From contig JAFTWI010000083.1 in assembly GCA_017465345.1 (NCBI GenBank), forward strand, positions 1 to 61,711: DNA of 61,711 nt. The letters are read 5' to 3'. A program made the position numbers and the translations under genes. The notes under the pieces are model-generated. The model did not search any database, was not told where the DNA came from, and saw nothing but the letters and a program-made list of their open reading frames with translations. How positions within the stretch are numbered: the stretch's first letter is position 1; the number at the start of each line of letters is the position of its first letter. Source of the DNA: Oscillospiraceae bacterium. GTDB taxonomy: Bacteria; Bacillota; Clostridia; Oscillospirales; Ruminococcaceae. Shown here in pieces: positions 26 to 57,379 of the stretch.

Positions 26-54
26 TTGACATTCTGTGCAATAAGAGGTATAAT
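26..54 (+). promoter_or_regulatory. sigma-A type promoter of the terY-like operon
   Basis: TTGACA at 26-31, 17-nt spacer, TATAAT at 49-54. First ORF starts at 113. Confidence 0.7.
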
Positions 55-112
55 TTTATTATGTTAAAATGAGCAAATTATATCTTTTTAAATAGAAAGG
101 CAGGGCAATATT

Positions 113-754
113 ATGTCAGAATTTTCAAGACGACTTCCCGTATATCTCCTCCTTGACGTTTCAGGTTCAATGGCAGGCGACCCTATCGAAGCAGTAAAGC
201 ACGGTGTACGTGCGCTTATCTCCGAGCTCAGAGGTGACCCTCAGGCTCTTGAAACAGCGTACCTCTCCGTTATCACATTCAACTCCAGCGCAAGACAGGT
301 TACTCCGCTTACCGAGCTTATGCTCTTCAAGGAGCCAACTCTCACAGCAGGCGGTGCAACAGCTCTCGGTGCAGCTTTACAGCTTCTCAACGAGTGCATC
401 CGCTCCGAAGTAAGAAAGTCAACTGAAACTCAGAAGGGTGACTGGCGTCCTCTCGTGTTTATTCTTACAGACGGTGCACCAACTGACGAATGGCGTGAAG
501 CGGCTGCAATGCTTAAGAGCACAAAGCCTGCAAATATCATCGCTTGTGCCGCAGGTGCATACGCTGATACAAAGGTGCTGAAGGAAATCACAGACTGTGT
601 GCTTATGATGAACACACTTTCAGCAGGTGACCTTGCACAGTTCTTTGCGTGGGTTTCCAGCTCTGTAAAAATGTCTTCCAAGAGCCTTGACTCCAAGCCA
701 GGTGCAAATATTGAGCTTCCACCACCACCACAAGGCTTCGTAATTGTTCCGTAA
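113..754 (+). CDS. TerY-like von Willebrand factor A (vWA) domain protein
   Basis: 213 aa. MIDAS DxSxS motif (DVSGSM) near the N-terminus, then ITFNS and LTDGAPTD. First gene of a vWA-PP2C-kinase triad. Confidence 0.85.
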   Translation: MSEFSRRLPVYLLLDVSGSMAGDPIEAVKHGVRALISELRGDPQALETAYLSVITFNSSARQVTPLTELMLFKEPTLTAGGATALGAALQLLNECIRSEVRKSTETQKGDWRPLVFILTDGAPTDEWREAAAMLKSTKPANIIACAAGAYADTKVLKEITDCVLMMNTLSAGDLAQFFAWVSSSVKMSSKSLDSKPGANIELPPPPQGFVIVP

Positions 755-766
755 TCGGAGGTAACA

Positions 767-1966
767 ATGGAAAATAACATTAACAAGCTTTCGGATAATG
801 ACGTTACTGCCCATACAGCTGCAATGTGGAAATACAATCCTGTGCCCGAAAGTCCCGAGCCGTATCCCGAAGCAAGCTGCTCATCAGCAGATGAAAACGG
901 ATTTGAGGTTTTGGCTGCAGCAGTGCGTGGTAAAAAGCACAAGCACGATGGTACAAACTGCGATGACAACTACGCTTTTGAAATCCTTGATGATACGGTT
1001 GTTGCAGCCGTTTCCGACGGAGCAGGTTCAAAGCTGTTTTCGAGAATCGGCGCCAAAGCAGCTTGTGAGGCAGTTGTGAAATACTTCAAGGCACGTCTTT
1101 CAGCTATAAAGCGTGACAATCCGAACTATCTTGAAATATTGAGTCTGCCCCTTGACAATGCTGATTTCGGTGCACTCTGTTCTCAGATTGCGGCAATGCT
1201 CCGTGACAGCTATGCGGAGGCTTTTGCTGCAGTTGAGGCAGCATACGAAAAGAGGAAGGACTACCCCGAATTCGAGGAAGCCGCAGGCAGAAAGCCTGAG
1301 CTTAAAGACTTTTCCTGCACGCTTCTTGCGTCAGTTGTTATCCCTGTTGAAACAGCAAATGGCAGGGAATACCTTACCGCTTCCATTCAGCTTGGTGACG
1401 GTATGATTGCGGCAGTTGATGAAAAGGCTGAAAATCCGCTTATACTCCTCGGCACAGCTGACGGAGGAAGCTTTGCAGGGGAAACGGAATTCCTCACCTC
1501 CGAAGCCTTCAGAAGCACGGAAAGTCTTATGAGCCGTACAAAAATCCGCAGGGGGAAGCTGTCCTTCCTTATGCTTATGACGGACGGCGTTGCGGATGAT
1601 TATTATCCTAACAATCCTCAGCTTCTTCGCCTTGCGCTTGATTTAAAGCTGAACAACATACTTGATATAGCTGAGCCAGAGCTTATTACGGACGTTACTG
1701 TACCTCAGCCTGTGGAGTATCCTTGGGTAAATGACGGTGACGTGAAATACTCTTTGCAGTACGCAAAAAATGTCCTTGCCGAAGCAGATATGACTCTTGA
1801 GCAGCTGTGGGCTGACAAGCACGCACAGAAAAAGGCTTCCCTTGCTTCCTTTGATATTGTTTATGATAAGGACAAGGCTGAAATGCTGAAAATTTGGCTT
1901 GACAATTATGTTGAAAGAGGTTCTTTCGATGACAGAACATTGCTGATTATAAATACTAACACATAA
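767..1966 (+). CDS. PP2C-family Ser/Thr protein phosphatase
   Basis: 399 aa. PP2C metal-binding motifs AVSDGAGS, LMLMTDGVADD and C-terminal GSFDDRTLLII. GGAGG RBS 12 nt after the previous stop. Confidence 0.85.
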   Translation: MENNINKLSDNDVTAHTAAMWKYNPVPESPEPYPEASCSSADENGFEVLAAAVRGKKHKHDGTNCDDNYAFEILDDTVVAAVSDGAGSKLFSRIGAKAACEAVVKYFKARLSAIKRDNPNYLEILSLPLDNADFGALCSQIAAMLRDSYAEAFAAVEAAYEKRKDYPEFEEAAGRKPELKDFSCTLLASVVIPVETANGREYLTASIQLGDGMIAAVDEKAENPLILLGTADGGSFAGETEFLTSEAFRSTESLMSRTKIRRGKLSFLMLMTDGVADDYYPNNPQLLRLALDLKLNNILDIAEPELITDVTVPQPVEYPWVNDGDVKYSLQYAKNVLAEADMTLEQLWADKHAQKKASLASFDIVYDKDKAEMLKIWLDNYVERGSFDDRTLLIINTNT

Positions 1967-1982
1967 ATTTCGGAGGTTTCCT

Positions 1983-3452
1983 ATGAGCAGAATGGGTGAA
2001 GCGACCCTTGCCGACGGAAGAAAAATCCCGTATGTAATTACTGACAATCCTCCCCGCGGAGGAATGAAATACACATATTTTGCACCCGATAAATCCTACG
2101 TTGTGCAGTTCTTCAACGAGCCGAATAAAATCGACCGTAATATGGCTGCACGCCTTGAGGCTATAATCGGACGCTATAATCCGACTATTCCCGAGTCAAA
2201 GGGAGGAGCAATCGGTAACGATGAGAAGCTGGCAAGCTATTTTGCAGGACGCTTCTGTTGGCCTACCGACCTTGTTGTTGCACCTGAATTCGGTATAGTT
2301 TCACCAGCTTACCCGAAAAGCTTTTTCTTTGAGGAGGGCGCTTCTCAGTTCCTTGAATTGAAAGGCAAGGACAAGAAAAGCAACTGGTTTACGTCCAGTA
2401 ACCGCCGCTTTCTCAATAAAAATGAGCTTGGTGACTTCCGTTCGATGATACAGATGTCACTTTTGCTGGCACGTTCAATACGCAGACTCCATCAGGCAGG
2501 TCTTGCACATTCAGATTTATCCAACAACAACGTTCTTATCGACCCGAAAACAGGAAACTGCGTTGTTATTGATATTGACACGCTGGTTGTGCCCGGACTT
2601 TTTCCGCCTGAGGTAGCAGGAACAAGAGGCTATATTGCTCCTGAGGTTCTATCAACAATGGAGCTTGACAGAAGTGACCCAAGAAGAATGATACCAAGCT
2701 CTGTAACGGATTTGCACGCTCTTTCAGTGTTGATTTACGAGTATCTTTTCTGTCGTCACCCTCTTATGGGTCCTAAAATTTACTCTACTGAATCTGCTGA
2801 GCGTGATGATTATCTCGGATTGGGACCTATGGCTACATTCATAGAAAATCCCGACGATACTTCCAATCGTCCATCAGCATTGAAAACAACCATAAAGGAC
2901 TTGGGACCCGTAATGGAAAACCTGTTCCTGCGTGCGTTTGTGGACGGTCTGCACAACCCTGCGCTCCGTCCTTCGGCAATGGAATGGGAGCGTGGTCTTG
3001 TTAAGACATGGGATTTGCTTCATAAGTGTTCAAACCCCGCTTGTGATAAGAAGTGGTTTGTGCTTTATGATGTGAATAATCCAGTTTGTCCGTTCTGCGG
3101 AACACAGATTGCAGATAAAAATATCGTACGTTTTGAGTTAAACTCAGAGGTAAGAGGTCATGACGGCGAGTGGAGAAGCTTTTCCGAGCTTGATGTGGTA
3201 AACAACACACCGCTGTTCAAATGGCATTTCTACAGCAATGTTTTTGCAGACGAAAAGGCTGATAAAACCTTGCAGGCTTATGTGTGCTGTCATAACGGCG
3301 AATGGTTCCTTATAAATCGAAATGCAGAAGGGTTGCTTTCACCGCAGGGAAATCCTGTTCCTGCAGGTCAGGCAATACGCCTTACAGACGGAACAATCTT
3401 CCGAGGTTCACGAAATGAACGAGGATTGTTAATCAAAGTTAGAATTATATAA
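1983..3452 (+). CDS. Hanks-type Ser/Thr protein kinase with C-terminal zinc ribbon and FHA-like domain
   Basis: 489 aa. Catalytic loop HSDLSNNNVLID, DID in place of DFG, GYIAPEV (APE motif). CxxC...CxxC ribbon (CSNPACDKK...CPFCGTQ). The C-terminal ~120 aa follow an FHA-like pattern (GEWFLINRNAEGLLSPQGNPVPAGQAIRLTDGTIF). Confidence 0.8.
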   Translation: MSRMGEATLADGRKIPYVITDNPPRGGMKYTYFAPDKSYVVQFFNEPNKIDRNMAARLEAIIGRYNPTIPESKGGAIGNDEKLASYFAGRFCWPTDLVVAPEFGIVSPAYPKSFFFEEGASQFLELKGKDKKSNWFTSSNRRFLNKNELGDFRSMIQMSLLLARSIRRLHQAGLAHSDLSNNNVLIDPKTGNCVVIDIDTLVVPGLFPPEVAGTRGYIAPEVLSTMELDRSDPRRMIPSSVTDLHALSVLIYEYLFCRHPLMGPKIYSTESAERDDYLGLGPMATFIENPDDTSNRPSALKTTIKDLGPVMENLFLRAFVDGLHNPALRPSAMEWERGLVKTWDLLHKCSNPACDKKWFVLYDVNNPVCPFCGTQIADKNIVRFELNSEVRGHDGEWRSFSELDVVNNTPLFKWHFYSNVFADEKADKTLQAYVCCHNGEWFLINRNAEGLLSPQGNPVPAGQAIRLTDGTIFRGSRNERGLLIKVRII

Positions 3453-3479
3453 TTTCCTGAAAAGAGAGGAATATGGTTT

Positions 3480-5507
3480 ATGTCTTTATCCGGTCTTTCT
3501 GAGCGTGAAGCGGAGGCTTCAAGACAGAAATACGGCTTTAATGAGCGAAAAAGCAATATAAAATTCGGTGACAGCCTTATTATGGGAATAATGTCACTAA
3601 GCTGCAAGCTTTTTGTTATTGCAGGAATGCTGAAAATTGTTCTGCTGCTTCTCGGATTGCTTGAAGCGGTTGAACCTGTCACTGATGTGTGGAGCATAGT
3701 GATACCTTTCTGTCTTGCAGTGTTGTGTGCTTTTCTTGAAGCAATGCTCCGATTTGCTTCCGAAAAGAAAACGGAGCAAGTGTGCAAGAACGCACATCAA
3801 AGCGAGTATATTGTGCTCAGAGGGGTGAAATCTGAACGTATTAACGAGAGAATGCTTACCGTGGGAGATGTTGTGTATCTTTCCGAGGGCGACATTGTTC
3901 CTGCCGACGGAATTGTTGCGGACGGGCAGTTTACAGTTGACCAGTCTGAATTTGGCATGCTTGAAAAAATCGAAAAAACAACTCCGCCTTCAACCTTCAG
4001 AAGCAGTAAGTCTGTCGGATTGAAAAGTGCTTATAGCCTGTACAAAGGATCTGTCATTGTGAAAGGCAGCGGTGCAATGAGAATTACTGCAGTGGGGAAT
4101 TCGGTTTTCAATGCTGAAAATGAACAGGCTGCAGAAAAGGTACATTGCGAAAAATTCAGCGGCTTGATTCAGACAGGCTATGTAACGGGAGTAGTGTGCG
4201 CTGTTGCAGTATTGACTGTATGTGTAGTGTTCGCTGGAATTTCAAAGCAGCTTGTGAATGGTATATTTGAAGGACTTTCAGCTGCGGCGGCAGTGCTGGC
4301 TATAAGCTGTCTGTGTGTAAAGAATATTGAGGTTGAAGCTGTTGCAGCGAAAATATTGAAGAAGCTTGAGTCAATTGGAGTCGTGGCTTCAAAGCCTGAT
4401 ATCCTCAACGATATGCAGAATACGGATATTCTGTTTGCAGACAAAACAGGAGTGCTGACGGAAGGAAAGTACATTGTAAATGGGTTTATCGACGGTACAG
4501 GAAATCAGATTGATAAGCTTGATGATGTGGACGAGAAAATTATCGGAATTATAAAAGCGGCGGCAGTAAATACTTCTTCTGCTCAGCTTGAAAATGACGG
4601 CACAGTTTATGGCGGAACTGCTTCTGACAGGGCAATTCTGAATTTTGTAAAAAAAGCTTCAGGTAAGGTGAAAGTGAAAAAACAGACTGAGGTTGAAAAA
4701 GGTGGAATACACGGTGCTACAGTCAACCTTGACAGCAAGCTTGTAACTTTTTTCAGCGGAAGTGCAGAGGTTATTCTGAACAGATGCTCTGACAGCTTTT
4801 CAGCCGACGGTAAAAAACGTAAAATTACCAATAAGGACGCATTGATAAAGCTTGCGGCAACTATTTCCCTTACAGGAAATGATGTGGTAGCTTTTGCGGT
4901 GTGTGACAATGTAATAAAAAATGAGAAGCTTCCTATAGGTGCATATACGCTTATAGGAATGGTAGTGCTTCACGATAAGGTCTGCGACGAAGCGGCAAAT
5001 GCGCTGCAGGAACTGGAGAAAAATAAAATAAAAACAGTTTTTATGACTTCTGCAAGCCGTGAGACAATGATTTATACTTTGAAGAAAACAGCAAAACGAA
5101 ATAAAGGTGTAATTCTCAGTTCGGAGCAGCTGGCGAAAATGGATGATAGCGAGCTGAAAAAAAGATTTTCTGAAATTAAGGCTATCGTCAATGCAGACAG
5201 CACCGATAAGCTTCGTATGCTCAGAGCAGCTTCCGAACAGGGCATGAAAACCTGTATGATGAGTGCAGATTATGCTGATATCCACGTGCTTGATGAAACA
5301 GATTCGGTTGTTGCTTCGTGTGGATGTTCATCAGCGGTAAAAGCAGTTTCAGACGCTTCCGCAGAAGTATGCGGAATAAGTGCGGCAGCAGCATTGCGAT
5401 CATATTCGCTGAAATTTACAGCTTTATGCAAGGCTGTTGTTGCGGCAAGAATTTTCTTCACTGTATGTATAGCGATAATGGCAGTTATTTCAGTTTTAGG
5501 GTGGTGA
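3480..5507 (+). CDS. Degenerate P-type ATPase homologue (type II-like scaffold, probably not a pump)
   Basis: 675 aa. Has a Cation_ATPase_N-like start (GLSEREAEASRQKYGFNE), an actuator-domain pattern (GDVVYLSEGDIVPADG) and the phospho-Asp motif ADKTGVLTEGKY. TGES is FGML, PEGLP is SCLCV, KGAPE is SGSAE, TGD is TSA, GDGxND is SADYAD. Only one hydrophobic segment follows the P domain. Confidence 0.8.
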   Translation: MSLSGLSEREAEASRQKYGFNERKSNIKFGDSLIMGIMSLSCKLFVIAGMLKIVLLLLGLLEAVEPVTDVWSIVIPFCLAVLCAFLEAMLRFASEKKTEQVCKNAHQSEYIVLRGVKSERINERMLTVGDVVYLSEGDIVPADGIVADGQFTVDQSEFGMLEKIEKTTPPSTFRSSKSVGLKSAYSLYKGSVIVKGSGAMRITAVGNSVFNAENEQAAEKVHCEKFSGLIQTGYVTGVVCAVAVLTVCVVFAGISKQLVNGIFEGLSAAAAVLAISCLCVKNIEVEAVAAKILKKLESIGVVASKPDILNDMQNTDILFADKTGVLTEGKYIVNGFIDGTGNQIDKLDDVDEKIIGIIKAAAVNTSSAQLENDGTVYGGTASDRAILNFVKKASGKVKVKKQTEVEKGGIHGATVNLDSKLVTFFSGSAEVILNRCSDSFSADGKKRKITNKDALIKLAATISLTGNDVVAFAVCDNVIKNEKLPIGAYTLIGMVVLHDKVCDEAANALQELEKNKIKTVFMTSASRETMIYTLKKTAKRNKGVILSSEQLAKMDDSELKKRFSEIKAIVNADSTDKLRMLRAASEQGMKTCMMSADYADIHVLDETDSVVASCGCSSAVKAVSDASAEVCGISAAAALRSYSLKFTALCKAVVAARIFFTVCIAIMAVISVLGW

Positions 5508-5511
5508 TTTT

Positions 5512-6804
5512 TTGAACAGCAAGGATATCATGCATATGCTTGATAATCCCGATGACTCAGGCAGAGTTAATCTTCCGAAGGGTGAGTATGAAGGAAAATT
5601 TATCGTGCGTAAAAGCTGTAAGATAAACGGAAACGGAGCACTTTTGTGGAACAATTCAGGCCCTGTGTTGGTTGTCGATGCAGAGAATGTAGAGCTGGAT
5701 AATCTTAAAATTGAACTGACAAACAGTAATCTCTCTCCTGAGCAATATATTTCTGTGTATTGCCGTTATGGAGATACGAAATTTACAGATGTTGAAGTAA
5801 ACGGCACTGTTCTTGGAATAAAGGACGAGGAACAGTTCTGGGGTGTTCCGAGGGTAGTGGATATAGGTACTTTTGAGGCTGAAAAGACCCATGCTTATAT
5901 TATAGAGATTTATTCTCCTGTTGAAGCTGAAATAAGCTGTAATTTCCACGATGTTACACTTTCTGTCGATACGCTTGTTCAAGGCTACAATACGATTACC
6001 GTTAATATTGGAAAAATCAGAAGCGGTTCAATGCTTTACGGAAATATTATAATCAAATCGTTGGTTGAAAGACGAATTATTCTCTGCGGTACAGCAGGTG
6101 ATAAAAACACACTTGATGAGGGTACAGTTCTTTTTGCAGTGAACAGAGAAGCTCCTGTGCAATATTCGGAAATGCTGAAAAATCTTGACCTTGTCCAGCT
6201 TGCTACTATGCCTGAGCCTGAACCAGAAACAATTGAAATTCAGCAGGAAGAGCCTGAGGAAACATCGGAGGAGCTTGACGAAGAAAATGTGCTTATAGCT
6301 CCGGGGAAAAGGCTGCCTATTGCACCCAAACAGTATAAAATTGAGTTGGTGGGTGAGCCTGACATCAAAATGGATATCGATGCATATCTTTTTATGCTTG
6401 ACAACAGAGGAAGGGTCAGCGCTGATAAACGTATGATATTCTTCGGAAATGACCATTCCGAGTGCGGAAGTGTAACCTATCTGAATGCACCCGATAAAAG
6501 AGTTATGTATATAGATTTCCGCAGAATACCAGGCGACGTAAATATGATGACATTGCTGTTCTCAATTTACGGAAAAAATCCTACCCATTTGTTTGACAAG
6601 CTCAGAAACGGAGATGTAAGCATACTTTGTGAAAACGGAGTGCATATGCATTTGCCGCTGCCCGGAAATATTCATTGCAAAACTCTCCTTGCAGTTGCAT
6701 TTGAGTGTACCGATGGAATATGGGAGATGATACCATCGGGAAAGGGTATCACAATGCCGCTTGAAGATATCTGTAAAAGCTACGGCGTAACAATCGTGTC
6801 ATAA
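5512..6804 (+). CDS. TerD-fold domain protein with N-terminal beta-rich module and acidic linker
   Basis: 430 aa, TTG start (alternative ATG at 5530). The C-terminal ~170 aa match the TerD pattern (DIDAYLFMLDNRGRV..MIFFGN..CGSV...MTLLFSIYG...CKSYG). The central linker is PEPEPETIEIQQEEPEETSEELDEEN. Confidence 0.7.
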   Translation: MNSKDIMHMLDNPDDSGRVNLPKGEYEGKFIVRKSCKINGNGALLWNNSGPVLVVDAENVELDNLKIELTNSNLSPEQYISVYCRYGDTKFTDVEVNGTVLGIKDEEQFWGVPRVVDIGTFEAEKTHAYIIEIYSPVEAEISCNFHDVTLSVDTLVQGYNTITVNIGKIRSGSMLYGNIIIKSLVERRIILCGTAGDKNTLDEGTVLFAVNREAPVQYSEMLKNLDLVQLATMPEPEPETIEIQQEEPEETSEELDEENVLIAPGKRLPIAPKQYKIELVGEPDIKMDIDAYLFMLDNRGRVSADKRMIFFGNDHSECGSVTYLNAPDKRVMYIDFRRIPGDVNMMTLLFSIYGKNPTHLFDKLRNGDVSILCENGVHMHLPLPGNIHCKTLLAVAFECTDGIWEMIPSGKGITMPLEDICKSYGVTIVS

Positions 6805-6818
6805 GGAGAAAATGGTAA

Positions 6819-7442
6819 ATGAATTTTGATGAATTAATAGAAAAACGACGCAGTATAAGAAAATTTCTTAATGACAGCGTCGATGAAAATCAGATTGAAG
6901 AGCTTATCCGTGCGGCAGCAACAGCCCCAAGCGGCTGTAACAGTCAGTGCTGGAAATTTGTCGCAGTGAAAAGTCCAGATAAAATAAAGGCTTTGGCAGA
7001 AGCTGTGGAGAAGGGTGTGCATCGTTTTTACAACGGTTGCGAGGAAAACTTCGTTGCTTCAAGAGTTAAGCAGACAACATTCTTCCGAAATGCACCACTT
7101 GTTATTCTCGTGTATCTTACTGAAATGAAATACCACGACCCAAGGGTTACCGATTATTACTCCTCAAAGGGGTATGGTTCAGCTGAAATGCTTTCAGCAT
7201 TAGGAAATCCTGATATTCTTTCAATCGGGGCAGCTGTTGAAAATCTGCTGTTAAAGGCTGAAGAAATGGGACTCGGTGCTTGCTGGATGAATGACCCTGT
7301 GGTTGCAGAAAAGGAAATAAATGAACTTTTCGGAGCTGCGGAAAATCACAGACTGATGAGCGTTATTCCCGTGGGGAAGCCAGCTTATACACCAAGAGAA
7401 AAGAGTGTTAAGCCTTTGGCTGAGATAATGGAAATAGTATAA
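6819..7442 (+). CDS. Nitroreductase family protein
   Basis: 207 aa. RRSIRKF and APSGCNSQCWKFV signatures. AAGGAG RBS 14 nt after the previous stop. Confidence 0.85.
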   Translation: MNFDELIEKRRSIRKFLNDSVDENQIEELIRAAATAPSGCNSQCWKFVAVKSPDKIKALAEAVEKGVHRFYNGCEENFVASRVKQTTFFRNAPLVILVYLTEMKYHDPRVTDYYSSKGYGSAEMLSALGNPDILSIGAAVENLLLKAEEMGLGACWMNDPVVAEKEINELFGAAENHRLMSVIPVGKPAYTPREKSVKPLAEIMEIV

Positions 7443-7446
7443 AAAT

Positions 7447-7472
7447 ACGGCACTTCTTTAATGAAGTGCCGT
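7447..7472. terminator. Bidirectional hairpin terminator between the convergent nitroreductase and metA genes
   Basis: ACGGCACTTC / GAAGTGCCGT 10-bp stem with a 6-nt loop, flanked by A-run and T-rich sequence. Confidence 0.7.
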
Positions 7473-7478
7473 TGCTGT

Positions 7479-8405
7479 TTATATAATGGCTTCAAGCTCG
7501 TTGAGGTTGAATGGTGTTTTCTGATATACGCAGTAGTTGAGCCAGTTTGAGAAAAGCAGATTTGCGTGTGCACGCCAGTTGAAGTGAGGTGGCTGTGACG
7601 GGTCATCGTAAGGGAAGTAGTGCTTCGGTACATCAATCGGCAGCCCCTTATCCTTGTCACGAAAATACTCGTTTGCAAGGGTAAAGCGGTCGTATTCAAA
7701 ATGACCTAACACAAAAAACTGTCTTTCGGTTTCGTCAGCAATAATGTTTACACCTGACTCATGTGAAGCGGCAAGAATATGCAGCTGCTTAACCTTCTCC
7801 ACGTCCATGCGCTTGATTTCGGTGTGACGCGAATGAGGTACATTGAACTTTTCGTCAAAGCCTCTGAGAAGCGGGTGATTTGCAACCTCTGCCTTATGTG
7901 GGAATACGCCGAACATTTTGGCGGAAAGGTCATATTTCGGCACTCCGTAATGATAGTAAAGCCCAGCCTGTGCACCCCAGCAGATGTGGAGAGTGGAGCA
8001 GACATTTTTCTTTGACCATTCCATAATGCCGCAAAGCTCTTTCCAGTAGTCAACGTCCTCAAAAGGAATTTGCTCAACAGGTGCACCTGTTATAATCAAA
8101 CCGTCAAAACGCTGTTCCTTGACATCGTCAAAGGTTTTATAGAACTTTGTCAGGTGCTCAATCGGAGTGTTCTTTGTAACATGGCTTGCCATCTGGATAA
8201 GCTCAATATCAACCTGAAGCGGAGTATTTGAAAGCAGACGGAGAATTTGAGTTTCCGTTTCGATTTTCTTCGGCATCAGGTTGACTATTGCAATGCGAAG
8301 CGGACGTATATCCTGATGAGACGCCGCAGTATCGGTCATTACAAATATATTTTCGTTATTGAGCACTGCATAGGCAGGCAGATTATTGGGAATATTGATA
8401 GGCAT
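7479..8405 (-). CDS. metA: Homoserine O-acyltransferase (MetA family)
   Basis: 308 aa. Canonical MetA N-terminus [11 protein letters not shown]...ENIFVM and full-length family pattern. Confidence 0.9.
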
Positions 8406-15971: not shown

Positions 15972-16014
15972 AAATCCTGATAAGAACGCAAATTCTTATC
16001 AGGATTTCTTTTTA
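15972..16014. terminator. Bidirectional terminator
   Basis: AAATCCTGATAAGAA...TTCTTATCAGGATTT stem, flanked by A-run and T-run, between convergent genes. Confidence 0.75.
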
Positions 16015-17082
16015 CATCTCGCTTTTCAACTTCAAATTCAGTGTACTCCCCACAAGATAGCTTCTCTCTGCGTTGCAGTAATCGTTGTACCTTTCGGGGC
16101 AGTACCGCCGCACAAGCTTCTTTACTCCGAAAATGTCGCAGAGGTTTTCGTGCACCGCCGCCGAATATGCCGCCATACAGCTTTCGCTGATTTGCTGACG
16201 TGCCGCCTTTTCGATAAGGGCGGGCTTTATTCCGTAGGGGTTTTCGGCAACGGTCATTTTCAGCTTGATTTCGGCATTTACGGTAAGCACGTCCGCCATT
16301 TCAGCGTCAAGCTTCGTGCAGGCGCTTGTGATAAAAACTGTAGCACGGTTCCCGTCAACTTCCACGGGAACCGTTATTTTGTCCCCCGTTTCAAACTGGT
16401 TCAGGAGCAACTTTGCCCCGAGGGTTTCCTTTTCGTCAAGTTTACCACGCACACCGTTTTTCTGCGCAAGGGTAACACCCTCAAAGGTCACGCTTTTCTC
16501 CTCAGCGGCAATAATCGGCAGAGCCGCCGCTGTGTCAAGTTCACCTGTGCTTGCGGCAAGCTCGGCAACGGAAGTGAACAGAGTTTTGCCCTGTGCGGCA
16601 GAGGAGTCAGCAAGGGCGAGAATTTGCTCCGCGGAAAAGGAGCCTTCCTCGGGTAGCGTTTCTATGACGGCGGCGGGGTCGTCGGAGTAGGCGACTGGAC
16701 AAGACGGCGACACGCTTCCGTCAAGGAAAAGGGATAACTCATCGGCGGGATTTTTTATGCCGCCCCCCACAACAAGCATCTTGATGTGTCCCAGAAAAGC
16801 TTTCTTTCCGAGAGTAAGTTCGGCGGTGGAAATTGCTTCGTGAATGGTTGCACCCTCACCTTTTGCGGTGATGGTGTTTGCCTTGCTGACGTCAGGCTCG
16901 GGAGTGCCGCTTTCCGACTTGTACACCTGCATCGAAACAAAGTAAATGTTGTCCTCACGTTCAATTCCCATAAGCTGAACAAAGGCACGGTCGTTGACCT
17001 CGATACCCATTGAACAGCCTGTCAGAAACAGTGTGGCAAGGGTCGCCATGGCTAAAAATTTAAGCTTCATTTTTCTTTTCAC
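16012..17082 (-). CDS. Spore germination receptor subunit C (Ger(x)C lipoprotein)
   Basis: 356 aa. Lipobox LFLTGC followed by the IEVNDRAFVQLMGIE pattern of the GerAC family. Last gene of an A-B-C operon. Confidence 0.8.
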   Translation of the reverse strand: MKRKMKLKFLAMATLATLFLTGCSMGIEVNDRAFVQLMGIEREDNIYFVSMQVYKSESGTPEPDVSKANTITAKGEGATIHEAISTAELTLGKKAFLGHIKMLVVGGGIKNPADELSLFLDGSVSPSCPVAYSDDPAAVIETLPEEGSFSAEQILALADSSAAQGKTLFTSVAELAASTGELDTAAALPIIAAEEKSVTFEGVTLAQKNGVRGKLDEKETLGAKLLLNQFETGDKITVPVEVDGNRATVFITSACTKLDAEMADVLTVNAEIKLKMTVAENPYGIKPALIEKAARQQISESCMAAYSAAVHENLCDIFGVKKLVRRYCPERYNDYCNAERSYLVGSTLNLKLKSEM

Positions 17083-18115
17083 CAGCCTTTCTTCTGGAAA
17101 TAATTAATGCAGTCAATGGAAGTGACCCTGTCAGGAAAATTACGGAGTAGCCCGAACAGAGTATTCTGTAAACTGGGTCAAAGTCAAGTCCCGTCAACGT
17201 GAAAATCATAACCGTTCCGAAAACGAGGACGGCTGCAACGGATGTTCGGAACTTCATTTTAGGGAACACCTCTTCCATAAGTCCTGCGGAAAGATGGAGG
17301 AAAAGGGCGATGTTAAGCACAGCGGTAATGGTCCACACGATAAGGTAAAGGGAGTCACTCCGCTGTAGAAAACGTGCGCCGCCGAATGTGCCGAGAGAAA
17401 GGAAAGGGTAGTCGGTAAGCTGTGCAAAATCACCAAGCACCATACAAATCAGAAGTATTACTCCCTCAACAAGAAACAGCTTTGATGCAAGTAGTCCGTA
17501 AGTGCCGCAGCGGTGCTTTTCCTTGACGTGTTTTGCAAGAAAAGCAAGTGCAACAATCTCACCGTTTCGCGACAAATCGTTCAGTACAGCTGAAAAAAGG
17601 CTTTTTGGGGTAATGGGTGAAAGGTACAGATTTGTAGTGTCAAAGCTTTGCACTGAGGAGAAAACCATAGCTGTAACCGCCGCTACAAACAGCCAGAATA
17701 CTATAACAGCGCTTCGTCCCAGTGCCTCAATTCCAAGGCAGCCGCAGTACACGCAGATGATGAGAAGTACTCCAATCCATAATGTGCTGTCAGCTGTTGG
17801 AAAAAAGCGTGCTGAAAGGAAATTCTGAAAATGAAGCAGCCCGTTTACCGTATATAACAAAAAGAAAAGCAGGTACAGAACTGCTGAAAGAATTCCAAGA
17901 GGACGGCATTTTTTCAGCAGTACGTCTGTAGCGCTGTCCTTGAGAATTACAACGGGAATGAGTATTACCGCCTGAATTGCCGTAGAAATTGCCGTGCCAA
18001 TCATCTGCACCGAAATATCACCCTCTGCAAAGGGTACAAAAGTCATAAGGGTGAAAACCCTGCACATAAAAAGCAGGAGAAGAAGCTGTCCCCAGCTGAT
18101 AATTCGTTTTTCCAT
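17060..18115 (-). CDS. Spore germination receptor subunit B (GerAB-like permease)
   Basis: 351 aa and about 10 TM segments. Positioned between GerAA-like and GerAC-like genes with overlapping stop and start. Confidence 0.8.
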   Translation of the reverse strand: MEKRIISWGQLLLLLFMCRVFTLMTFVPFAEGDISVQMIGTAISTAIQAVILIPVVILKDSATDVLLKKCRPLGILSAVLYLLFFLLYTVNGLLHFQNFLSARFFPTADSTLWIGVLLIICVYCGCLGIEALGRSAVIVFWLFVAAVTAMVFSSVQSFDTTNLYLSPITPKSLFSAVLNDLSRNGEIVALAFLAKHVKEKHRCGTYGLLASKLFLVEGVILLICMVLGDFAQLTDYPFLSLGTFGGARFLQRSDSLYLIVWTITAVLNIALFLHLSAGLMEEVFPKMKFRTSVAAVLVFGTVMIFTLTGLDFDPVYRILCSGYSVIFLTGSLPLTALIISRRKAGEKKNEA

Positions 18116-18116
18116 A

Positions 18117-19604
18117 TCAGTCCTCCATGTTCACGCCGTTGAGCTTTTCAATTGTTGCGTTGCCTGTTGCCATGCGTTTAAAACCCACCCTTGCCAGTAC
18201 ATCACGCATTGCTTTCGGTGTAAACGGAGAAAGCGGCGAAGTGGCAGGTGTACCATAATTTTCAAGTGAGCAAAGATTAATAAGTGTTACAGCCGCAAGC
18301 AGGGATATTCCGTAAAGTCCGCTTATTCCTCCTGTAACAACGGCAATGAAGCGAAGAGTTGTAATCTGCTGATTCAAGTTTGGTACAACAAAGGAAGCTG
18401 TTACCGAAATTGCGCAGACAAGTAGAAGCGGGTTTGAAATTATTCCTGCGGACACGGCAGCATCCCCGATGATAAGTCCTCCCACAATCGAAACCGTACC
18501 GCCCACGCTTTTCGGCAACCGCACTCCCGCTTCACGGATTATTTCGTAGAACAGCAGAACAATAAACGCCTCAACTGCAAGGGGCAATGGTGCAGTCTGC
18601 TCAGCAGAAGCAAGGGTTACGAGAAGCGTGTGGTTGAAAAGTTCGGGGTGAAAGGTTACCACTGCAACGTAAACCGCAGGCAGAAAAATTGCGAGGAAAA
18701 ATGCAAGATAGCGAATCCATCTTATCAGCACAGCATAAAATGGGCGGAAGTTGTAATCGTCAAGTGTCTGAAAATTCTCAATAAACAGTGACGGAATAAC
18801 GATTGCAAAGGGCGTGCCGTCAATAAGCAGACCGATTCGCCCCTCAATGATTTTTGCACAGAAAACGTCGGGACGCTCGGTCACAGAAACACCCGAGAAA
18901 AAACTTGTGTTGGTGTTATCGAGAAAGGGCTCAACATAGCCGCTTCCAAGCAGGCTTTCAAGTGGTAAATCCTCAAGCCTCTTACGGATTTTCTTCACCA
19001 GTCTCATAGGTACACGGTCAGCCATATAGGTCAGTATCACGTCCACGTTTGCAGTTGCTGTCACGGGAAAAAGTTCAAACCTAAGCAGGGGAGATTTGAT
19101 ACGGCGGCGGACCAGTGACATACTGATACGAACTGTTTCCACAAACCCTTCCTGTGCACCACGAATGTTACCCTCAGAGGACGGCTCTGAAATACTTCGG
19201 ATTGAATATCCCTGTACGCCGTAAGCAAAAGCCGTGTCTACGCCGTCGATAAACAGCACCGCAAATCCACTCATCAGCCTGCGGATAATGTCACCATACT
19301 GAGTGCAAAGTCCGCGGTCAATGGCTAAAAGCATACGGTCACGGATGTGCATGAAAATATCGTGTGGAGAAGCATTTTCGGCAACGTGCAGATTTGTAAG
19401 CGGACGTAAAATCAGATTTGTGATAAACTGAATGGAAATCATACCCTCAAAGCACACAAGACAGCAGGGTGTATCATCAATCAGAAATTCATTTATCAGC
19501 AGGTCGGAGCTTCCTCCGAGAATATTTTTTATGTTGGAAATATTCTGCCGCAGCGATTTTTCTATGTTGATTTCCTTAAAATCATAAGCGTCAGGCATAT
19601 TCAT
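18117..19604 (-). CDS. Spore germination receptor subunit A (GerAA/KA family)
   Basis: Start chosen at MNMPDAYDF (GGAG RBS). GerA family pattern: SSDLLINEF..., C-terminal TM bundle, IIGDAAVSAG. Confidence 0.9.
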   Translation of the reverse strand: MNMPDAYDFKEINIEKSLRQNISNIKNILGGSSDLLINEFLIDDTPCCLVCFEGMISIQFITNLILRPLTNLHVAENASPHDIFMHIRDRMLLAIDRGLCTQYGDIIRRLMSGFAVLFIDGVDTAFAYGVQGYSIRSISEPSSEGNIRGAQEGFVETVRISMSLVRRRIKSPLLRFELFPVTATANVDVILTYMADRVPMRLVKKIRKRLEDLPLESLLGSGYVEPFLDNTNTSFFSGVSVTERPDVFCAKIIEGRIGLLIDGTPFAIVIPSLFIENFQTLDDYNFRPFYAVLIRWIRYLAFFLAIFLPAVYVAVVTFHPELFNHTLLVTLASAEQTAPLPLAVEAFIVLLFYEIIREAGVRLPKSVGGTVSIVGGLIIGDAAVSAGIISNPLLLVCAISVTASFVVPNLNQQITTLRFIAVVTGGISGLYGISLLAAVTLINLCSLENYGTPATSPLSPFTPKAMRDVLARVGFKRMATGNATIEKLNGVNMED

Positions 19605-19706
19605 AAAATCACTCCAATCTTTTTGATTATTATTTCCGCAGCGTGTAAAAAAATACATGGATTTTTCCGCAGATTTCGGGAACAATATTGCCAAAGGAGA
19701 GGTTTT

Positions 19707-20379: not shown

Positions 20380-20757
20380 ATGAAGCGTGTGACAATGGCA
20401 TTTGCGCTTGTAGCAGCTATAGTTGTCTATTCAGCTGTTGCAGCAGGCTGCCTTGGAAAATGGAAAAATGATGTGATTGACATCATCGACAGAATTATAA
20501 TGTACAACGAAAACGGCGACAGCGGAAAAGCCTCCGCAGCCGCCGATGAACTTACAGATGAGTGGATATCGCTGGAAAAGAAGATGAGCCTTTTTGTCCG
20601 TGACGAAAAGCTGGACAGCATAAGCTCTTCTGTAGCAAAAGTTCCTCATTTCATTGCCGAGGCAAATGACGAGCTTGATGCTGAACTTGAAAGCATACGC
20701 CGACAGCTGAAACTGCTGTACCGAGGAGAACTGCCGCTTTGGTACAATCTTCTTTAG
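20380..20757 (+). CDS. Small membrane-anchored protein, DUF4363-like
   Basis: 125 aa from MKRVTMAF, translationally coupled to the DUF421 gene as is commonly seen. Confidence 0.5.
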   Translation: MKRVTMAFALVAAIVVYSAVAAGCLGKWKNDVIDIIDRIIMYNENGDSGKASAAADELTDEWISLEKKMSLFVRDEKLDSISSSVAKVPHFIAEANDELDAELESIRRQLKLLYRGELPLWYNLL

Positions 20758-21959
20758 CGTTTCTTCAAGTCAATGCAGACAACAATCATCTTACCGTCAT
20801 TATAGAAATGAGAAGAGATTGTCTTGCAGTTTTTTCCTGTTGCAGCCGATATGTACCAGCCTGAAATAAACGGGTCTTCAATCTGCTCCTTGACAGCATA
20901 GAAATAATTCTTGATGTCATGGTTTACGCCCTTCAGTTCAGGCTTGAATCCTGGCTGAATTTCCGTATCGGATGTCATAATTGTTTCCGTAATCTGAAAA
21001 CCCTTTTCATCAATAAGGAATGCACATTCAATTTCCTTGTGTTCATGAACATATTTTTTCAGAACCGATTCATAATCATTTGGATTTGTACCGATAAGGT
21101 TGCTTACAAGGTCATAAATAATACGCTTGTAGCTTTCAATCTGCACATTTACAACCGTAGGGTTTTTCTTTATGCTGAGATTGAGTCTGAGTGCAGCGTC
21201 TTCAAGCTTGAGACGAGCCTCGTTTGTGAACAGGAAATTGAATTGTTCAGGACGTGAAAAATAGTAACCCTGAAAGTAGTCAACACCCATAAGCATACAG
21301 GTAATAACCTCGTCAACAGTTTCAACACCCTGTGCAATAGTCATCGCACCAATCTGCTTGGCAGTATTGATAATCGATTTGAAAACTTCCTGATTGTAGG
21401 TATTTGATTCAATGTTGCTTACAATAAAACGGTCAATCTTGATAATGTCAGGGTTAATCATTTTTATTCTTTCCATAGTATCTTCCCCTGCACTTACATT
21501 GTCCAGCGCAATAAGGAAACCTTTTGAGCGATAAAAATTGACAAACATCATCAAGTCATAATTATCTCTTACATTTGAACTGTTCAGCTCAATAACAACG
21601 CTTTCGGGCGAAAGATTGTGGTTTTCGGTTGTGCGAAGAAGCTCACCATTGCCGGCATCCACGTCATTAAGAACCGAGGTTTCGAAATTGACAAAAAGAG
21701 CAGGCGCAGTCTTTTCCTCAGCAACAAAAGCAGCCATTGATTTTTCACGGCATATTCTGTCAAGCTCAAGAGCATTTCCGTTTTGCTTGGCATAGTTAAA
21801 AAGAAAATAAGGCGAAACAATTTCACCCTTGTAATCGCCTCTGGCAAGCGCTTCAAGACCGATAACTTTTTTTGTGTTGATGGAATAAATAGGCTGAAAT
21901 TCAACAAAGATGTCCTTGTTGTCAATGACTTCCTGAACTATTTCGGGAGTAATTTTCAT
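20754..21959 (-). CDS. EAL domain protein with C-terminal PAS/Cache-like sensor domain (EAL probably degenerate)
   Basis: 401 aa. FQPIYS...GLEALAR, IKIDRF and QGYYFSRP are present. DDFG is DNVS, ELTE is ELNS, and EGVE is QGVE. Confidence 0.85.
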   Translation of the reverse strand: MKITPEIVQEVIDNKDIFVEFQPIYSINTKKVIGLEALARGDYKGEIVSPYFLFNYAKQNGNALELDRICREKSMAAFVAEEKTAPALFVNFETSVLNDVDAGNGELLRTTENHNLSPESVVIELNSSNVRDNYDLMMFVNFYRSKGFLIALDNVSAGEDTMERIKMINPDIIKIDRFIVSNIESNTYNQEVFKSIINTAKQIGAMTIAQGVETVDEVITCMLMGVDYFQGYYFSRPEQFNFLFTNEARLKLEDAALRLNLSIKKNPTVVNVQIESYKRIIYDLVSNLIGTNPNDYESVLKKYVHEHKEIECAFLIDEKGFQITETIMTSDTEIQPGFKPELKGVNHDIKNYFYAVKEQIEDPFISGWYISAATGKNCKTISSHFYNDGKMIVVCIDLKKR

Positions 21960-40431: not shown

Positions 40432-43400
40432 ATGCTGGAACTGAAACAAATAAAAAAGGATTATCCCGCAGGTGACGGGGTTGTTCACGCTCTTAAAGGG
40501 ATTGACCTGCAATTCCGCAAGTCAGAATTCGTGTCCATTCTCGGACCGTCAGGCTGCGGTAAAACAACTATGCTTAATATCATCGGCGGTCTTGACGGAT
40601 ATTCCGAGGGTGACCTCGTTATTAACGGCACTTCTACAAAAAAATTCAAGGACAGAGATTGGGACGCTTACAGAAATCACTCCATCGGTTTCGTTTTCCA
40701 GAGCTATAACCTTATTCCACACCAGTCCGTGCTCCAGAATGTTGAGCTTGCACTTACACTTTCGGGTGTTTCCAAAGCTGAACGCCGTGAAAGAGCAAAG
40801 AAAGCTCTCGAAGATGTTGGGCTCGGTGACCAGCTGAAGAAAAAGCCAAGCGAAATGTCAGGCGGACAGATGCAGCGTGTTGCAATTGCACGTGCCCTCG
40901 TAAATAATCCTGATATTATCCTTGTGGACGAGCCTACAGGTGCCCTTGATACCGAAACCAGTGTTCAGGTAATGGAAATCCTCAAGAATATCTCTAAGGA
41001 CAGACTTATCGTTATGGTAACCCATAACCCTGAGCTCGCCGAGCAGTATTCCTCAAGAATAATCAGAATGCTTGACGGCGTAATTACCAATGACTCAATG
41101 CCACTTACCGAGGAAGAAATTGAAGCTGAAAATAAGGCTGTCGAGGAAGCAAATAAGAGTGCAAAGAAAACAAAGAAGCCTTCTATGTCATTCGGCACAT
41201 CATTTATGCTTTCACTGAAAAACCTGTTTACAAAGAAGGGTAGAACAATACTTACTTCCTTTGCAGGTTCAATCGGTATCATCGGTATCGCTCTTATCCT
41301 CGCAATTTCAACAGGTATGACAGCATACATCAACGATGTTCAGGAAAGCACACTCTCCGCTTATCCTCTTACTCTCGAAGCAACAACCGTTGAAATGTCT
41401 GCACTTATGGAAGCATTCATGAATGTTGATTCCGAGGAAACAGCCCACGAAAATGACGCTGTATATAAGAAAACCGCTCTTTACGATATGATCAACGCAA
41501 TGAACAATATCGAAACCAGCGAAAACGACCTCAAGGCATTCAGCGAATATCTTACATCAAGAATTACTGATGAAACCGATCCGCTCAAGGAAGCTGTTAA
41601 CGGTGTTCAGTACGGCTACGGTCTTGATCTTCAGCTTTATACTGAAACCGTAGACGATAAGATTATGTATACCAATCTGGAAGAAATCATCATTGACCTT
41701 ATGTTCCAGTATGTCGGCATGGATATGTCATCAATGGTGCAGATGTCCAACGCAAATATGGCAAGTATGTCCTCTATGAGCGGTATGGGCGGAGTAAAGC
41801 TTTGGCAGGAGCTTCTCCCCGGTGAAAACGGTGCACCAATAAATGACCTTATCCTTGACCAGTATGAAGTTGTGTACGGCGCATGGCCTAATAGCTATGA
41901 CGAGGTTGTACTTGTTGTAGACAAGAATAACGAGCTTGATGATATCGTACTTTACGCACTTGGTCTTGTTTCCGAAGGAGAAATTGAAGACCTTGCTTCT
42001 GCTGCAATCGACAAGGTTGAACTCAATGACCGTGGAACAACAAGATGGTCTTATGAGGATATCTGCAATACCGAATATAAGACAATCCTCAACGCAGATT
42101 GCTATCACTATGACGAAGCAACAGGACTTTACACAGATATGCGTGAAACAGAAGCTGGCCTTCGTTACCTCTATGACAACGCATTGTCTATGAAGGTGTC
42201 AGGTATTATCCGTCCTAAGGAAGATACCGATACAGCTATGATTACAGGTTATATTGCATACACAAGCGACCTTACAAAGTATCTTATCGAGAAGGCTGAT
42301 GAAACAGATGTAGTCAAGGCGCAGCTTGAAAATCCCGATAGTGATGTAATTACTGGACTTCCATTCGACTCCACAACAGGAAGTCTTTCCGACGAGGATA
42401 AAAAGACAGCTCTTATTGAGTATCTCGAAGGACTTGATATGGCTGGTAAAGCAGCAGCTTACGTTGCAATCAGCTGTGTACCTGCTGATGATTTTGTTCA
42501 GCAGCAGATTGACGCAACTCTCGGCGCAATGACCCGTGAGGATATTGAAGCAACACTCTCCGAAGCTCTCGGTGCACAGGTAGGCGTATCTGTTGATGAA
42601 ATTACAGAGTACTTTGCATCAATGTCTGATGAGGAAATGAATGACTTCTTTGCTCAGATGATGAAAGAGCAGATTAAGGCTCAGTATGCAACAGAAGTAG
42701 CAATGCAGATGGCAGCAATGACTCCCGACCAGCTTGCAGCTGCCCTTGATATGGCAATTCCAACTTATACTGAGGAGCAGGCTGCCCTCTATTATGATGA
42801 GATTATGGTTTTCTCCGATTCCACATATGAGGACAACCTCAAGAAGATGGGATACGTTGATATGGATTACCCCGCAACAATCAACATCTATGCTTCTTCC
42901 TTTGAAAACAAGGATGTAATCGTTGAAGCGATTGACGAGTATAATTCCTCCGTTGAAGAACTTAAGCAGATTAAGTATACTGACTACCTTGGTATTATGA
43001 TGTCCTCAATCACAACAATTATCAACGCTATAACTTATGTTCTCATCGCATTTGTTGCAATTTCCCTCATCGTTTCCTCCATTATGATTGGTGTTATCAC
43101 ACTTATCTCCGTACAGGAAAGAACAAAGGAAATCGGTATCCTCCGTGCAATCGGTGCTTCAAAGAAGGACGTTTCAGGAATGTTCAATGCGGAAACAGTT
43201 ATCGTAGGCTTTACGGCAGGTCTCCTCGGCGTAGTTGTAACATATATTCTCTGTATCCCAATCAATATCATTATGTATAAGCTTACCGATATCAGCAACC
43301 TTAAAGCGATACTTCCTGTCCCTGCAGCAGCAATCCTCGTCCTTATCAGCGTGCTTCTTACACTTATTTCCGGTATTATCCCATCAAGAAGCGCAGCAAA

Positions 43401-43434
43401 GAAAGACCCTGTTGTTGCACTCCGTACAGAATAA
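40432..43434 (+). CDS. Fused ABC ATPase / FtsX-type permease (MacB-like) with a large extracytoplasmic domain
   Basis: 1000 aa. N-terminal ATPase ([35 protein letters not shown]). First TM near residue 270. About 600 aa extracytoplasmic. C-terminal FtsX 3-TM bundle. Confidence 0.9.
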
Positions 43435-51421: not shown

Positions 51422-51580
51422 ATGGATTATACTATTACACGGGCAGACCTTAATAACTGCCAATTTGAAAATTGCACAGCTTATGTGCAGAACGAAAACC
51501 ACATCGAAGCTTTTGCTCCTGATGTGATGCTCACTGTTATTTATAACGTACTCCATAAGGAGGCGGTGAGCAATGACTAA
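51422..51580 (+). CDS. Candidate 52-aa ORF translationally coupled to the serine recombinase gene
   Basis: AAAGGAGG RBS 7 nt upstream of the ATG. Translation is MDYTITRADLNNCQFENCTAYVQNENHIEAFAPDVMLTVIYNVLHKEAVSND. Its stop overlaps the recombinase ATG at 51573. Confidence 0.35.
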   Translation: MDYTITRADLNNCQFENCTAYVQNENHIEAFAPDVMLTVIYNVLHKEAVSND

Positions 51581-57085: not shown

Positions 57086-57379
57086 ATGAATAATTCATTC
57101 ATGGGTACAAATAAACCACTATTTGCAGATTATCCTGACGTTGTAACAATCAAGCAAATGATGGAAATGCTACATATTGGTCGAAGCACAGCCGACAAAC
57201 TGCTTAATACTGGTGTAATACCATATTTCAAACTTGGAGAATCTTGTAGGGTACGTTATATCTTAAAATCAGAGATAATCCGTATGGTAGTCAATAAGGC
57301 CTTTACAACTATAGGCAACAATGATATAATTAATAACATTCACAATGGGTGTTATAATGAAAGGAGTAACACCGAATGA
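57086..57379 (+). CDS. Excisionase-family / MerR-like HTH DNA-binding protein
   Basis: 97 aa. VVTIKQMMEMLHIGRSTADKLLNTGVIPYFKLG is the HTH_17/excisionase pattern. Overlaps the integrase start (ATGA). Confidence 0.75.
   Translation: MNNSFMGTNKPLFADYPDVVTIKQMMEMLHIGRSTADKLLNTGVIPYFKLGESCRVRYILKSEIIRMVVNKAFTTIGNNDIINNIHNGCYNERSNTE

Follow-up and report, generated by a model that had tools for sequence, protein, structure and literature searches.

A TerY-P operon with a pseudo-P-type ATPase and a long TerD protein in Oscillospiraceae: a probable streamlined derivative of a clostridial ter cluster

Ter gene clusters are widespread, have been linked to tellurite, colicin and phage resistance as well as to virulence plasmids, and remain mechanistically obscure. 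We describe here a six-gene operon built around a TerY-P triad on the forward strand of contig JAFTWI010000083.1 (GCA_017465345.1), from an Oscillospiraceae bacterium; the whole stretch of DNA analyzed, 61,711 nt in length, is hereafter referred to as the window. The operon begins with a TerY-type vWA gene (gene 1, positions 113-754, 213 amino acids (aa); Pfam VWA, 4e-13), a PP2C-family phosphatase gene (gene 2, 767-1966, 399 aa; Pfam PP2C_2, 1.6e-35) and a gene for a Hanks-type Ser/Thr kinase that continues into a Cys4 zinc ribbon and a C-terminal beta-rich domain (gene 3, 1983-3452, 489 aa; Pfam Pkinase). These are followed by a pseudo-P-type ATPase (gene 4, 3480-5507, 675 aa; Pfam E1-E2_ATPase/HAD), a long TerD protein (gene 5, 5512-6804 with a TTG start, 430 aa; Pfam TerD at residues 285-424, 4e-14) and a nitroreductase (gene 6, 6819-7442, 207 aa; Pfam Nitroreductase, 7e-35). 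An initial annotation of this DNA had proposed the same six domain assignments, each of which Pfam bears out; the all-beta N-terminal half of gene 5 was missing from its description.

Intergenic gaps between the six genes measure 12, 16, 27, 4 and 14 nt, and a purine-rich Shine-Dalgarno-like motif precedes each of the six starts. The sigma-70-type promoter TTGACA-17 nt-TATAAT at 26-54 (+ strand) matches the consensus at 12 of 12 positions and is the sole perfect match in the first 9 kb of the window. Upstream of the vWA gene, most of the related loci that we aligned carry a -35/-10 pair at the same aligned position: TTGACA occurs with TATAAT or TATACT in 12 of 22 upstream sequences, and CTTGAAAT...GATATACT in three more. 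That the pair is conserved at this position in relatives suggests that the promoter is more than a chance match. At the other end, a hairpin terminator called on both strands (7447-7472; 10-bp stem with six GC pairs) lies between gene 6 and the convergent metA (7479-8405, - strand; Pfam HTS, 1e-143). The layout given in the initial annotation, with its closely spaced genes, ribosome-binding sites, promoter and terminator, is thus found again position for position.

The six genes are likely transcribed as a single unit, gene 6 being probably co-transcribed with the others. A single transcript is nevertheless not proven, since a promoter-like site, TTGTTA-16-TATAAT (3426-3453, + strand; 10 of 12 consensus positions), extends over the 3' end of the kinase gene, 27 nt ahead of the gene 4 start. 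This site could give genes 4-6 some independent expression. We also sought regulatory RNAs in the leader and intergenic regions; an Rfam search at E<=1 returned only a chance match to an astrovirus frameshift element, inside gene 4, and the candidate was discarded.

TerY-P (TerY-phosphorylation) was first described in the context of ter clusters, and its triad in the classical ter locus was reportedly delineated by Anantharaman, Iyer and Aravind in 2012. We assessed the motifs of genes 1-3 across 24 to 30 homologs. In gene 1, the metal ion-dependent adhesion site (MIDAS; DxSGS...T...D), previously annotated as intact, is indeed present and invariant in 24 homologs, as are 62% of the vWA positions. 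The metal-binding Asp motifs of gene 2 (HDG.N.DD, VSDGAGS, TDG..DD and FDDRT) are largely invariant. In gene 3, the motifs HSDLSNNN, DID and APE do not vary among homologs, and this invariance extends to the first Cys and to the CPFC pair of the ribbon motif (C..P.C...CPFCG) that follows the kinase domain. Ratios of nonsynonymous to synonymous substitution rates (dN/dS) range from 0.004 to 0.08 for the vWA gene, from 0.04 to 0.13 for the PP2C gene and from 0.017 to 0.033 for the kinase gene.

Full-length homologs of the kinase are encoded on 2348 enterobacterial plasmids. On the Klebsiella pneumoniae plasmid pTMTA63631, the kinase homolog closes a classical ter locus and is 41.6% identical to gene 3 over 489 aa, or 100% of its length (E 5e-117); gene 1 shares 58% identity with the first TerY of this plasmid and gene 2 shares 30% with its PP2C. 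The plasmid genes run in the order ATP-grasp, phosphoribosyltransferase (PRTase), StiP, HpcH lyase, DUF4236, CopG, vWA, TerD, vWA, TerY-C, PP2C and kinase, and adjoin terZ/terA. Classical loci on K. pneumoniae and IncHI2 plasmids thus share with the window the same MIDAS-containing vWA protein, the phosphatase, and the kinase with its C-terminal zinc ribbon and beta-rich domain. They differ in that their triad follows several TerY, TerX and TerY-C genes and lies beside terZABCDEF and biosynthetic genes, whereas the window has a single vWA gene, then a pseudo-P-type ATPase and one long TerD. Because of the identities of the vWA protein and the kinase to their plasmid counterparts, the assignment of genes 1-3 to a TerY-P triad, already made in the initial annotation, is confirmed; at the sequence level it is well supported that they form a bona fide triad orthologous to that of the classical ter plasmids.

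Searching with gene 5, we obtained 97 protein clusters with 45-100% identity, almost all from metagenome bins of Oscillospiraceae/Clostridia. Scanning one genome per GTDB species with the same protein gave 28 loci, and the order vWA-PP2C-kinase-gene 4-gene 5 is found in all of them wherever the contig extends far enough. Identity to the window at these loci is 86-100% for the vWA protein, 82-97% for the kinase, 62-95% for PP2C, 44-81% for gene 5 and 33-75% for gene 4. The nitroreductase gene, apart from the window, is present in six of the 28 loci (L005-L010), all in the nearest clade (gene 5 identity of at least 74%). In the other loci its position is taken by a 258-aa gene with a metallo-beta-lactamase fold (8 rabbit-gut entries), by unrelated open reading frames (ORFs) of 454, 560 or 366 aa, or by nothing. 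The idea that genes 4-6 recur downstream of TerY-P triads therefore holds for genes 4 and 5, seen in every locus of sufficient length, and fails for gene 6, which we rejected as a component of the system on grounds of synteny. It is well supported that the nitroreductase is a clade-specific, recently acquired passenger, and since it is restricted to the six closest loci and the window, the conserved unit consists of five genes.

Some of these loci carry additional genes. In the rabbit-gut loci L001 (11351-12127), L025-L030 and L032, the gene following gene 5 matches Anti-Pycsar Apyc1/Lactamase_B (L030 represents the same contig stretch as L001), and a HinfI-type restriction-modification cluster lies about 6 kb downstream in L001. 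In one clade, represented by L003/L004, an inserted 257-aa radical-SAM gene (4293-5066) separates the vWA gene from the PP2C gene; a wider vWA-to-PP2C spacing suggests the same insertion in L022 and L023.

Relatives of the kinase far outnumber those of genes 4 and 5: we obtained 2691 matches, the best 120 of which are all at least 62% identical and about 490 aa in length. Four of the corresponding loci, L033, L034, L035/L036 and L038, whose kinases are 78, 69, 66 and 64% identical to gene 3, respectively, contain what we call full clusters. Their vWA proteins, in the loci compared, are 77-87% identical to gene 1. The triad, in the order vWA-PP2C-kinase, is followed in these clusters by an intact pump of 867-923 aa with both Cation_ATPase_N and Cation_ATPase_C domains, two to five short TerDs (192-215 aa), an AIM24 gene (in three of the four clusters, L034, L035/36 and L038, and not in L033) and a TerD protein of 407-428 aa. 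The latter aligns end to end with gene 5, at 28-34% identity. A C-C_Bond_Lyase gene comes after the long TerD in L034, L035/36 and L038; in L033 this place is occupied directly by purA. L035/36, the one of the four full clusters seen that far, continues after the lyase with PRTase_2/TRSP and StiP/PELOTA_1 genes. This block of C-C lyase, PRTase and StiP genes is a ter-associated biosynthetic module.

The intact pumps linked to triads keep the motifs DKTGT, PEGL, TGD and GDGxND. When scored with a hidden Markov model of the gene-4 family, they reach 283-350 bits, whereas none of the other genuine pumps tested exceeds 264 bits; the triad-linked pumps are thus the nearest relatives of gene 4. The best of these other pumps, P0149, itself sits in a YceG-TelA-TerD-TerD-pump cluster, which shows that Ca-type pumps are recurrent members of ter clusters. 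An independent ter-type cluster of this order (YceG_bac-TelA-TerD-TerD-intact Ca-type P-ATPase; L039, 2946-10658) shows a Ca pump accompanied by TerD and TelA outside the TerY-P context. A descent of gene 4, in place, from the Ca2+-type (P2) P-ATPase of the ter cluster is well supported by these sequence comparisons.

The window and the full Oscillospirales ter clusters thus share the same 5' order, from vWA, PP2C and kinase through the P-ATPase position to the long TerD. They differ in that the full clusters have an intact pump, two to five short TerDs and, in three of the four, AIM24 and at least a C-C lyase gene, none of which is kept in the window. Neither the operon nor the approximately 26 window ORFs scanned with Pfam include TerC, TerB or TelA, and the scanned ORFs, those of the operon included, yielded no PRTase, ATP-grasp, C-C lyase or StiP/Pelota gene. 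No other TerD, TerY-C gene or pump occurs within the 61.7-kb window. It is well supported that the short Ca-binding TerDs, AIM24 and the genes for nucleoside-like metabolites have been dropped from the operon. Very probably, the operon arose by the streamlining of a clostridial ter stress-response cluster, larger and far more widespread than itself, and has been passed on vertically. In this respect our reading departs from that of the initial annotation, which saw an extended architecture added to the triad: the operon appears instead as a subset of a larger cluster comprising an intact pump, TerDs and AIM24. A further reduced operon, the most divergent of those seen, is found at L037 (kinase 77% identical), with a 678-aa pseudo-pump and a 428-aa TerD. 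Between its kinase and pseudo-pump genes lies an 80-aa Lys/Glu-rich ORF (6305-6547), probably a coiled coil.

A wide gap in score divides the gene-4 family from genuine pumps: its members show 39-99% identity and score at least 464 bits, whereas genuine Ca-type pumps score 146 bits or less at about 26% identity. The best sequence match of gene 4 in the Protein Data Bank is the Listeria Ca-ATPase LMCA1 (6zhh, 1e-21). With P2A Ca2+-ATPases (LMCA1 and the Bacillus subtilis YloB class), gene 4 has in common the N-terminal motif GLSxxEAxxRxxxYGxN, the A-domain motif GDxVPADG, the N and P domains and transmembrane helices M1-M5. In contrast to these enzymes, it is without TGES, PEGL and M6-M10, its TGD and GDGxND motifs are degenerate, and the phosphorylated Asp is not conserved. 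Specifically, TGES has changed to FGML, PEGL to CVKN, TGD to TSAS and GDGxND to SADYAD in the window protein, leaving DKTG (as DKTGV) as the sole survivor. Across the family, FG(M/V)(L/I) stands in place of TGES and C(G/V)KN in place of PEGL; at the TGD position most members have T(S/E)(A/E)S, a few keep TG- and none has TGD, and the GDGxND positions are variable. At the position of the phospho-Asp, 16 of 28 family members have D, while six have G and six E. The earlier statement that nearly all pump motifs are destroyed is therefore accurate, and even the remaining DKTG has an Asp that the family does not conserve.

The gene 4 chain ends after M5, with five transmembrane helices. Since M6-M10 are absent, so are the Ca2+ sites, and judging from its sequence gene 4 cannot be a pump. 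The AlphaFold2 model nevertheless retains the A, N and P domains together with M1-M5 (predicted local distance difference test score, pLDDT, 83; predicted TM-score, pTM, 0.77), and Foldseek aligns it with P2 pumps (Na,K-ATPase, SERCA and SPCA in E1 states) at E values of about 1e-33 and TMq of 0.70-0.75. The dN/dS ratio of gene 4 is 0.07-0.23. Conserved blocks of genes 4 and 5 include GLSEREAEASRxKYGxNE, GDxVPADG, FIDGxG and DGKKxKITNK, those of gene 4 falling in its N-terminal part and in the A and N domains. Wherever a locus contains them in full, down to a kinase identity of 82%, neither ORF is disrupted and the length of each stays constant. The possibility that genes 4 and 5 are pseudogenes was rejected on the basis of dN/dS and ORF integrity. 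The confident fold, the conserved blocks and the dN/dS values argue that gene 4 encodes a membrane-anchored pseudoenzyme rather than being a pseudogene.

Gene 5 is modeled (pLDDT 80) as an all-beta N-terminal region at about residues 18-208, a disordered acidic linker at 234-258 and a C-terminal TerD fold, which superimposes on structures 3ibz and 2kxt with TMt of 0.74-0.78. Most short TerDs of the full clusters contain the Ca2+-binding motif GDN(L/R)TGxGxGDDE; all long TerDs, gene 5 included, have a seven-residue deletion at this motif. The dN/dS ratio of gene 5 is 0.07-0.17; purifying selection thus acts on all five conserved genes of the operon. The N-domain of gene 5 (5512-6216, residues 1-235; about 190-200 aa) is without a Pfam model. 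It occurs in 481 cluster representatives at the 50% identity level, most of which are long TerD proteins of about 400-440 aa. Ten other architectures containing the domain were scanned with Pfam: two have a vWA domain (P0403 and P0484), two WD40 and two PKD/Big. Fusion proteins noted are P0403, P0484, P0442, P0453, P0451 and P0457. The N-domain looks like an undescribed mobile interaction domain, and its fusion to vWA in P0403 and P0484 gives a Rosetta-stone hint of an interaction between the vWA protein and gene 5. A NosD-like beta-helix was considered for this region and rejected, as the NCBIfam match (2.9e-5) is weak and far below cut-off; Foldseek gave Ig-, PapD- and ASH-like structures at low TM-scores.

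How might these five proteins work together? The operon has retained a metal-dependent adhesion module (vWA), a kinase and phosphatase for reversible phosphorylation, a protein anchored in the membrane whose cytoplasmic domains are large and folded, and a two-part adaptor with an N-domain found fused to vWA in other proteins. As the most economical model, we tentatively envisage a phosphorylation-gated, MIDAS-mediated assembly at the membrane. The pseudo-pump would serve there as anchor, sensor or scaffold; the long TerD, docking with its N-terminal beta domain on the vWA protein, would act as a bridge; and the kinase and PP2C would reversibly phosphorylate one of these partners. Metal-dependent binding by the MIDAS would then assemble or dissolve a membrane-associated complex when the cell meets stress to its envelope, ion balance or from infection. 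A functional Ca2+ pump and Ca-binding TerDs would be what this switch controls in the ancestral clusters, this Ca2+ limb having been discarded in the window lineage. With the loss of the parts that handle Ca2+, it is likely that Ca2+ flux itself has ceased to be the signal. This mechanism is possible rather than probable. The explanation taken as a whole, namely a streamlined ter derivative combined with a phosphorylation-gated membrane complex, is the best that we can offer, and we hold it with moderate confidence.

A more specific suggestion, which we consider rather doubtful, is that the Ca2+ pump was repurposed in place as a non-transporting receptor or scaffold. The TerY-P kinase and phosphatase would read or write its A, N and P domains, with the long TerD bridging to the vWA protein, and the operon would represent a minimal, five-protein, Ca2+-independent ter core. 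If so, the ancestral intact pump would also be a direct target of TerY-P, and the ter system would gain a concrete membrane output.

Several observations weigh against the explanation that we favor. The L037 pseudo-pump is as close to intact pumps as it is to gene 4, so that degeneration may have occurred repeatedly, or the family may simply be fast-evolving. At nonsynonymous sites, genes 4 and 5 change approximately 2-20 times faster than the vWA and kinase genes, gene 4 being the faster of the two; instead of a new role, this could reflect a relaxation of constraint. Elsewhere in the genome there may be Ca-binding TerDs, TerC or an intact paralogous pump that still work with the operon. Which protein is phosphorylated, which binds which and what is sensed are all inferred. 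As to novelty, no operon combining TerY-P, a P-ATPase and TerD was found in the open literature, a search outside which the 2012 ter survey falls; that survey may already draw a pump-containing cluster. A jumbo-phage paper that mentions TerD and a Ca-ATPase treats the two as unlinked genes. The presence of TerY-P inside ter clusters is known; what is new in detail is that a P-type-ATPase pseudoenzyme has been conserved, that all Ca-binding parts have been lost, and that the N-domain occurs fused to vWA.

Genes surrounding the operon in the window encode metA, mannose-6-phosphate isomerase, MatE, a ROK kinase, ilvD, a GerA germinant-receptor operon and an EAL protein. The GerAC/GerAB/GerA operon lies at 16012-19694 and the EAL-domain gene at 20754-21959, both on the minus strand. 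At L033, the cluster is located between rplJ/rplL and purA/rpsF-ssb-rpsR, and EAL and GerA genes are found directly upstream. That EAL and GerA genes occur near the cluster in both the window and L033 suggests an old, shared chromosomal neighborhood. A gene of Cys/Met metabolism recurs near the locus in L001, L035 and L037. No relatives of gene 5 were found on IMG/VR viral contigs. Altogether, this looks like a vertically inherited chromosomal locus and not a defense island.

These observations bear on the anti-phage interpretation suggested by the initial annotation, according to which the six genes form an undescribed extended defense system with the triad as switch and genes 4-6 as dedicated output or effectors. 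Phage-inhibition phenotypes are reported for ter clusters and TerY-P-like modules, and genes 4 and 5 show strict synteny with the triad while evolving faster than it does, as defense sensors and effectors often do; at L001, moreover, a restriction-modification cluster is found at a distance of about 6 kb and the sixth gene is Apyc1-like. Set against this are the lack of conservation of gene 6, housekeeping neighbors in place of defense islands, a vertical-looking pattern with absence from viral contigs, and the extreme conservation of the vWA and kinase proteins (dN/dS of 0.004-0.08 and about 0.02). Genes 4 and 5 have no recognizable toxic or effector activity, and the architecture is a subset of a known cluster type, not an addition to it. 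PADLOC-DB 2.0.0 gave no match for genes 1, 2, 4, 5 and 6 at E<=0.01 or even at E<=10, a weak negative since the presence of TerY-P models in this database is unconfirmed; the kinase matched only generic kinase models (MkoA and PD-T4-6). The defense-finder check thus lends no support to an anti-phage role. The same vWA/PP2C/kinase logic is found in the stand-alone TerY-P anti-phage system of Gao et al. (2020), as summarized in PMC11090510, and in TerY-P triads linked to CoCoNuTs, whose kinase has a C-terminal zinc ribbon like that of gene 3. The tested defense system differs, however, in that its kinase has an OB-fold and no ter genes accompany it; CoCoNuT triads sit with McrBC-type nucleases, whereas the partners in the window are a membrane pseudo-pump and a TerD protein. 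On this evidence, we judge the anti-phage interpretation unlikely.

A role in sporulation or germination is in our opinion similarly improbable. Here the ancestral cluster would manage Ca2+ or metal in spore formation, and the reduced operon would keep developmental signaling. The LMCA1/Ca-type class of the ancestral pump, the Ca-binding motif of the short TerDs, the GerA operons near the cluster in the window (16.0-19.7 kb) and in L033, the core-like chromosomal context and the very strong conservation of the vWA and kinase proteins would all fit. However, GerA is only loosely linked to the operon (at a distance of about 9 kb in the window, unrelated genes intervening), the parts that handle Ca2+ are precisely those missing from the reduced operon, and no sporulation-specific promoter was seen, the promoter being of the consensus sigma-70/sigma-A type. 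Finally, genes 4 and 5 might be functionless relics left after the loss of the pump and Ca-TerDs, with only the triad acting. Gene 4 has lost its catalytic and transport motifs, the residues at these sites varying between species, and genes 4 and 5 fall to 33-45% identity while the vWA protein stays at 86% or above. Yet both genes remain intact and of constant length across loci down to 82% kinase identity, with the further reduced L037 at 77%; their dN/dS ratios (0.07-0.23 for gene 4 and 0.07-0.17 for gene 5), conserved sequence blocks and confident models (pLDDT 83 and 80) make such decay highly improbable.

Together with its relatives, the operon shows that the TerY-P phospho-switch of a large group of gut and rumen Clostridia is hard-wired to a Ca-type P-ATPase and TerD paralogs. 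One lineage has very probably pared this arrangement down to five genes, keeping a dead, truncated pump under selection while every Ca-binding part was dropped from the operon. Such a system is simpler than the 15-20-gene classical locus, and points to testable protein-protein and kinase-substrate relationships. The gene-4 family also offers a rare bacterial example of a conserved P-type-ATPase pseudoenzyme.

Two further features of the window concern regions distant from the operon. Between positions 48000 and 60000, GC content falls to 33-39%, compared with 41-49% elsewhere, and several ORFs have no Pfam match. This stretch, which also contains a large serine recombinase gene (51573-53207, + strand) and a phage-type tyrosine integrase gene (57376-58509, + strand), is probably an integrated mobile element. 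At 40432-43434 (+ strand), a 1000-aa protein combines an ABC ATPase with a C-terminal FtsX-like permease, in the manner of a MacB-like fusion.

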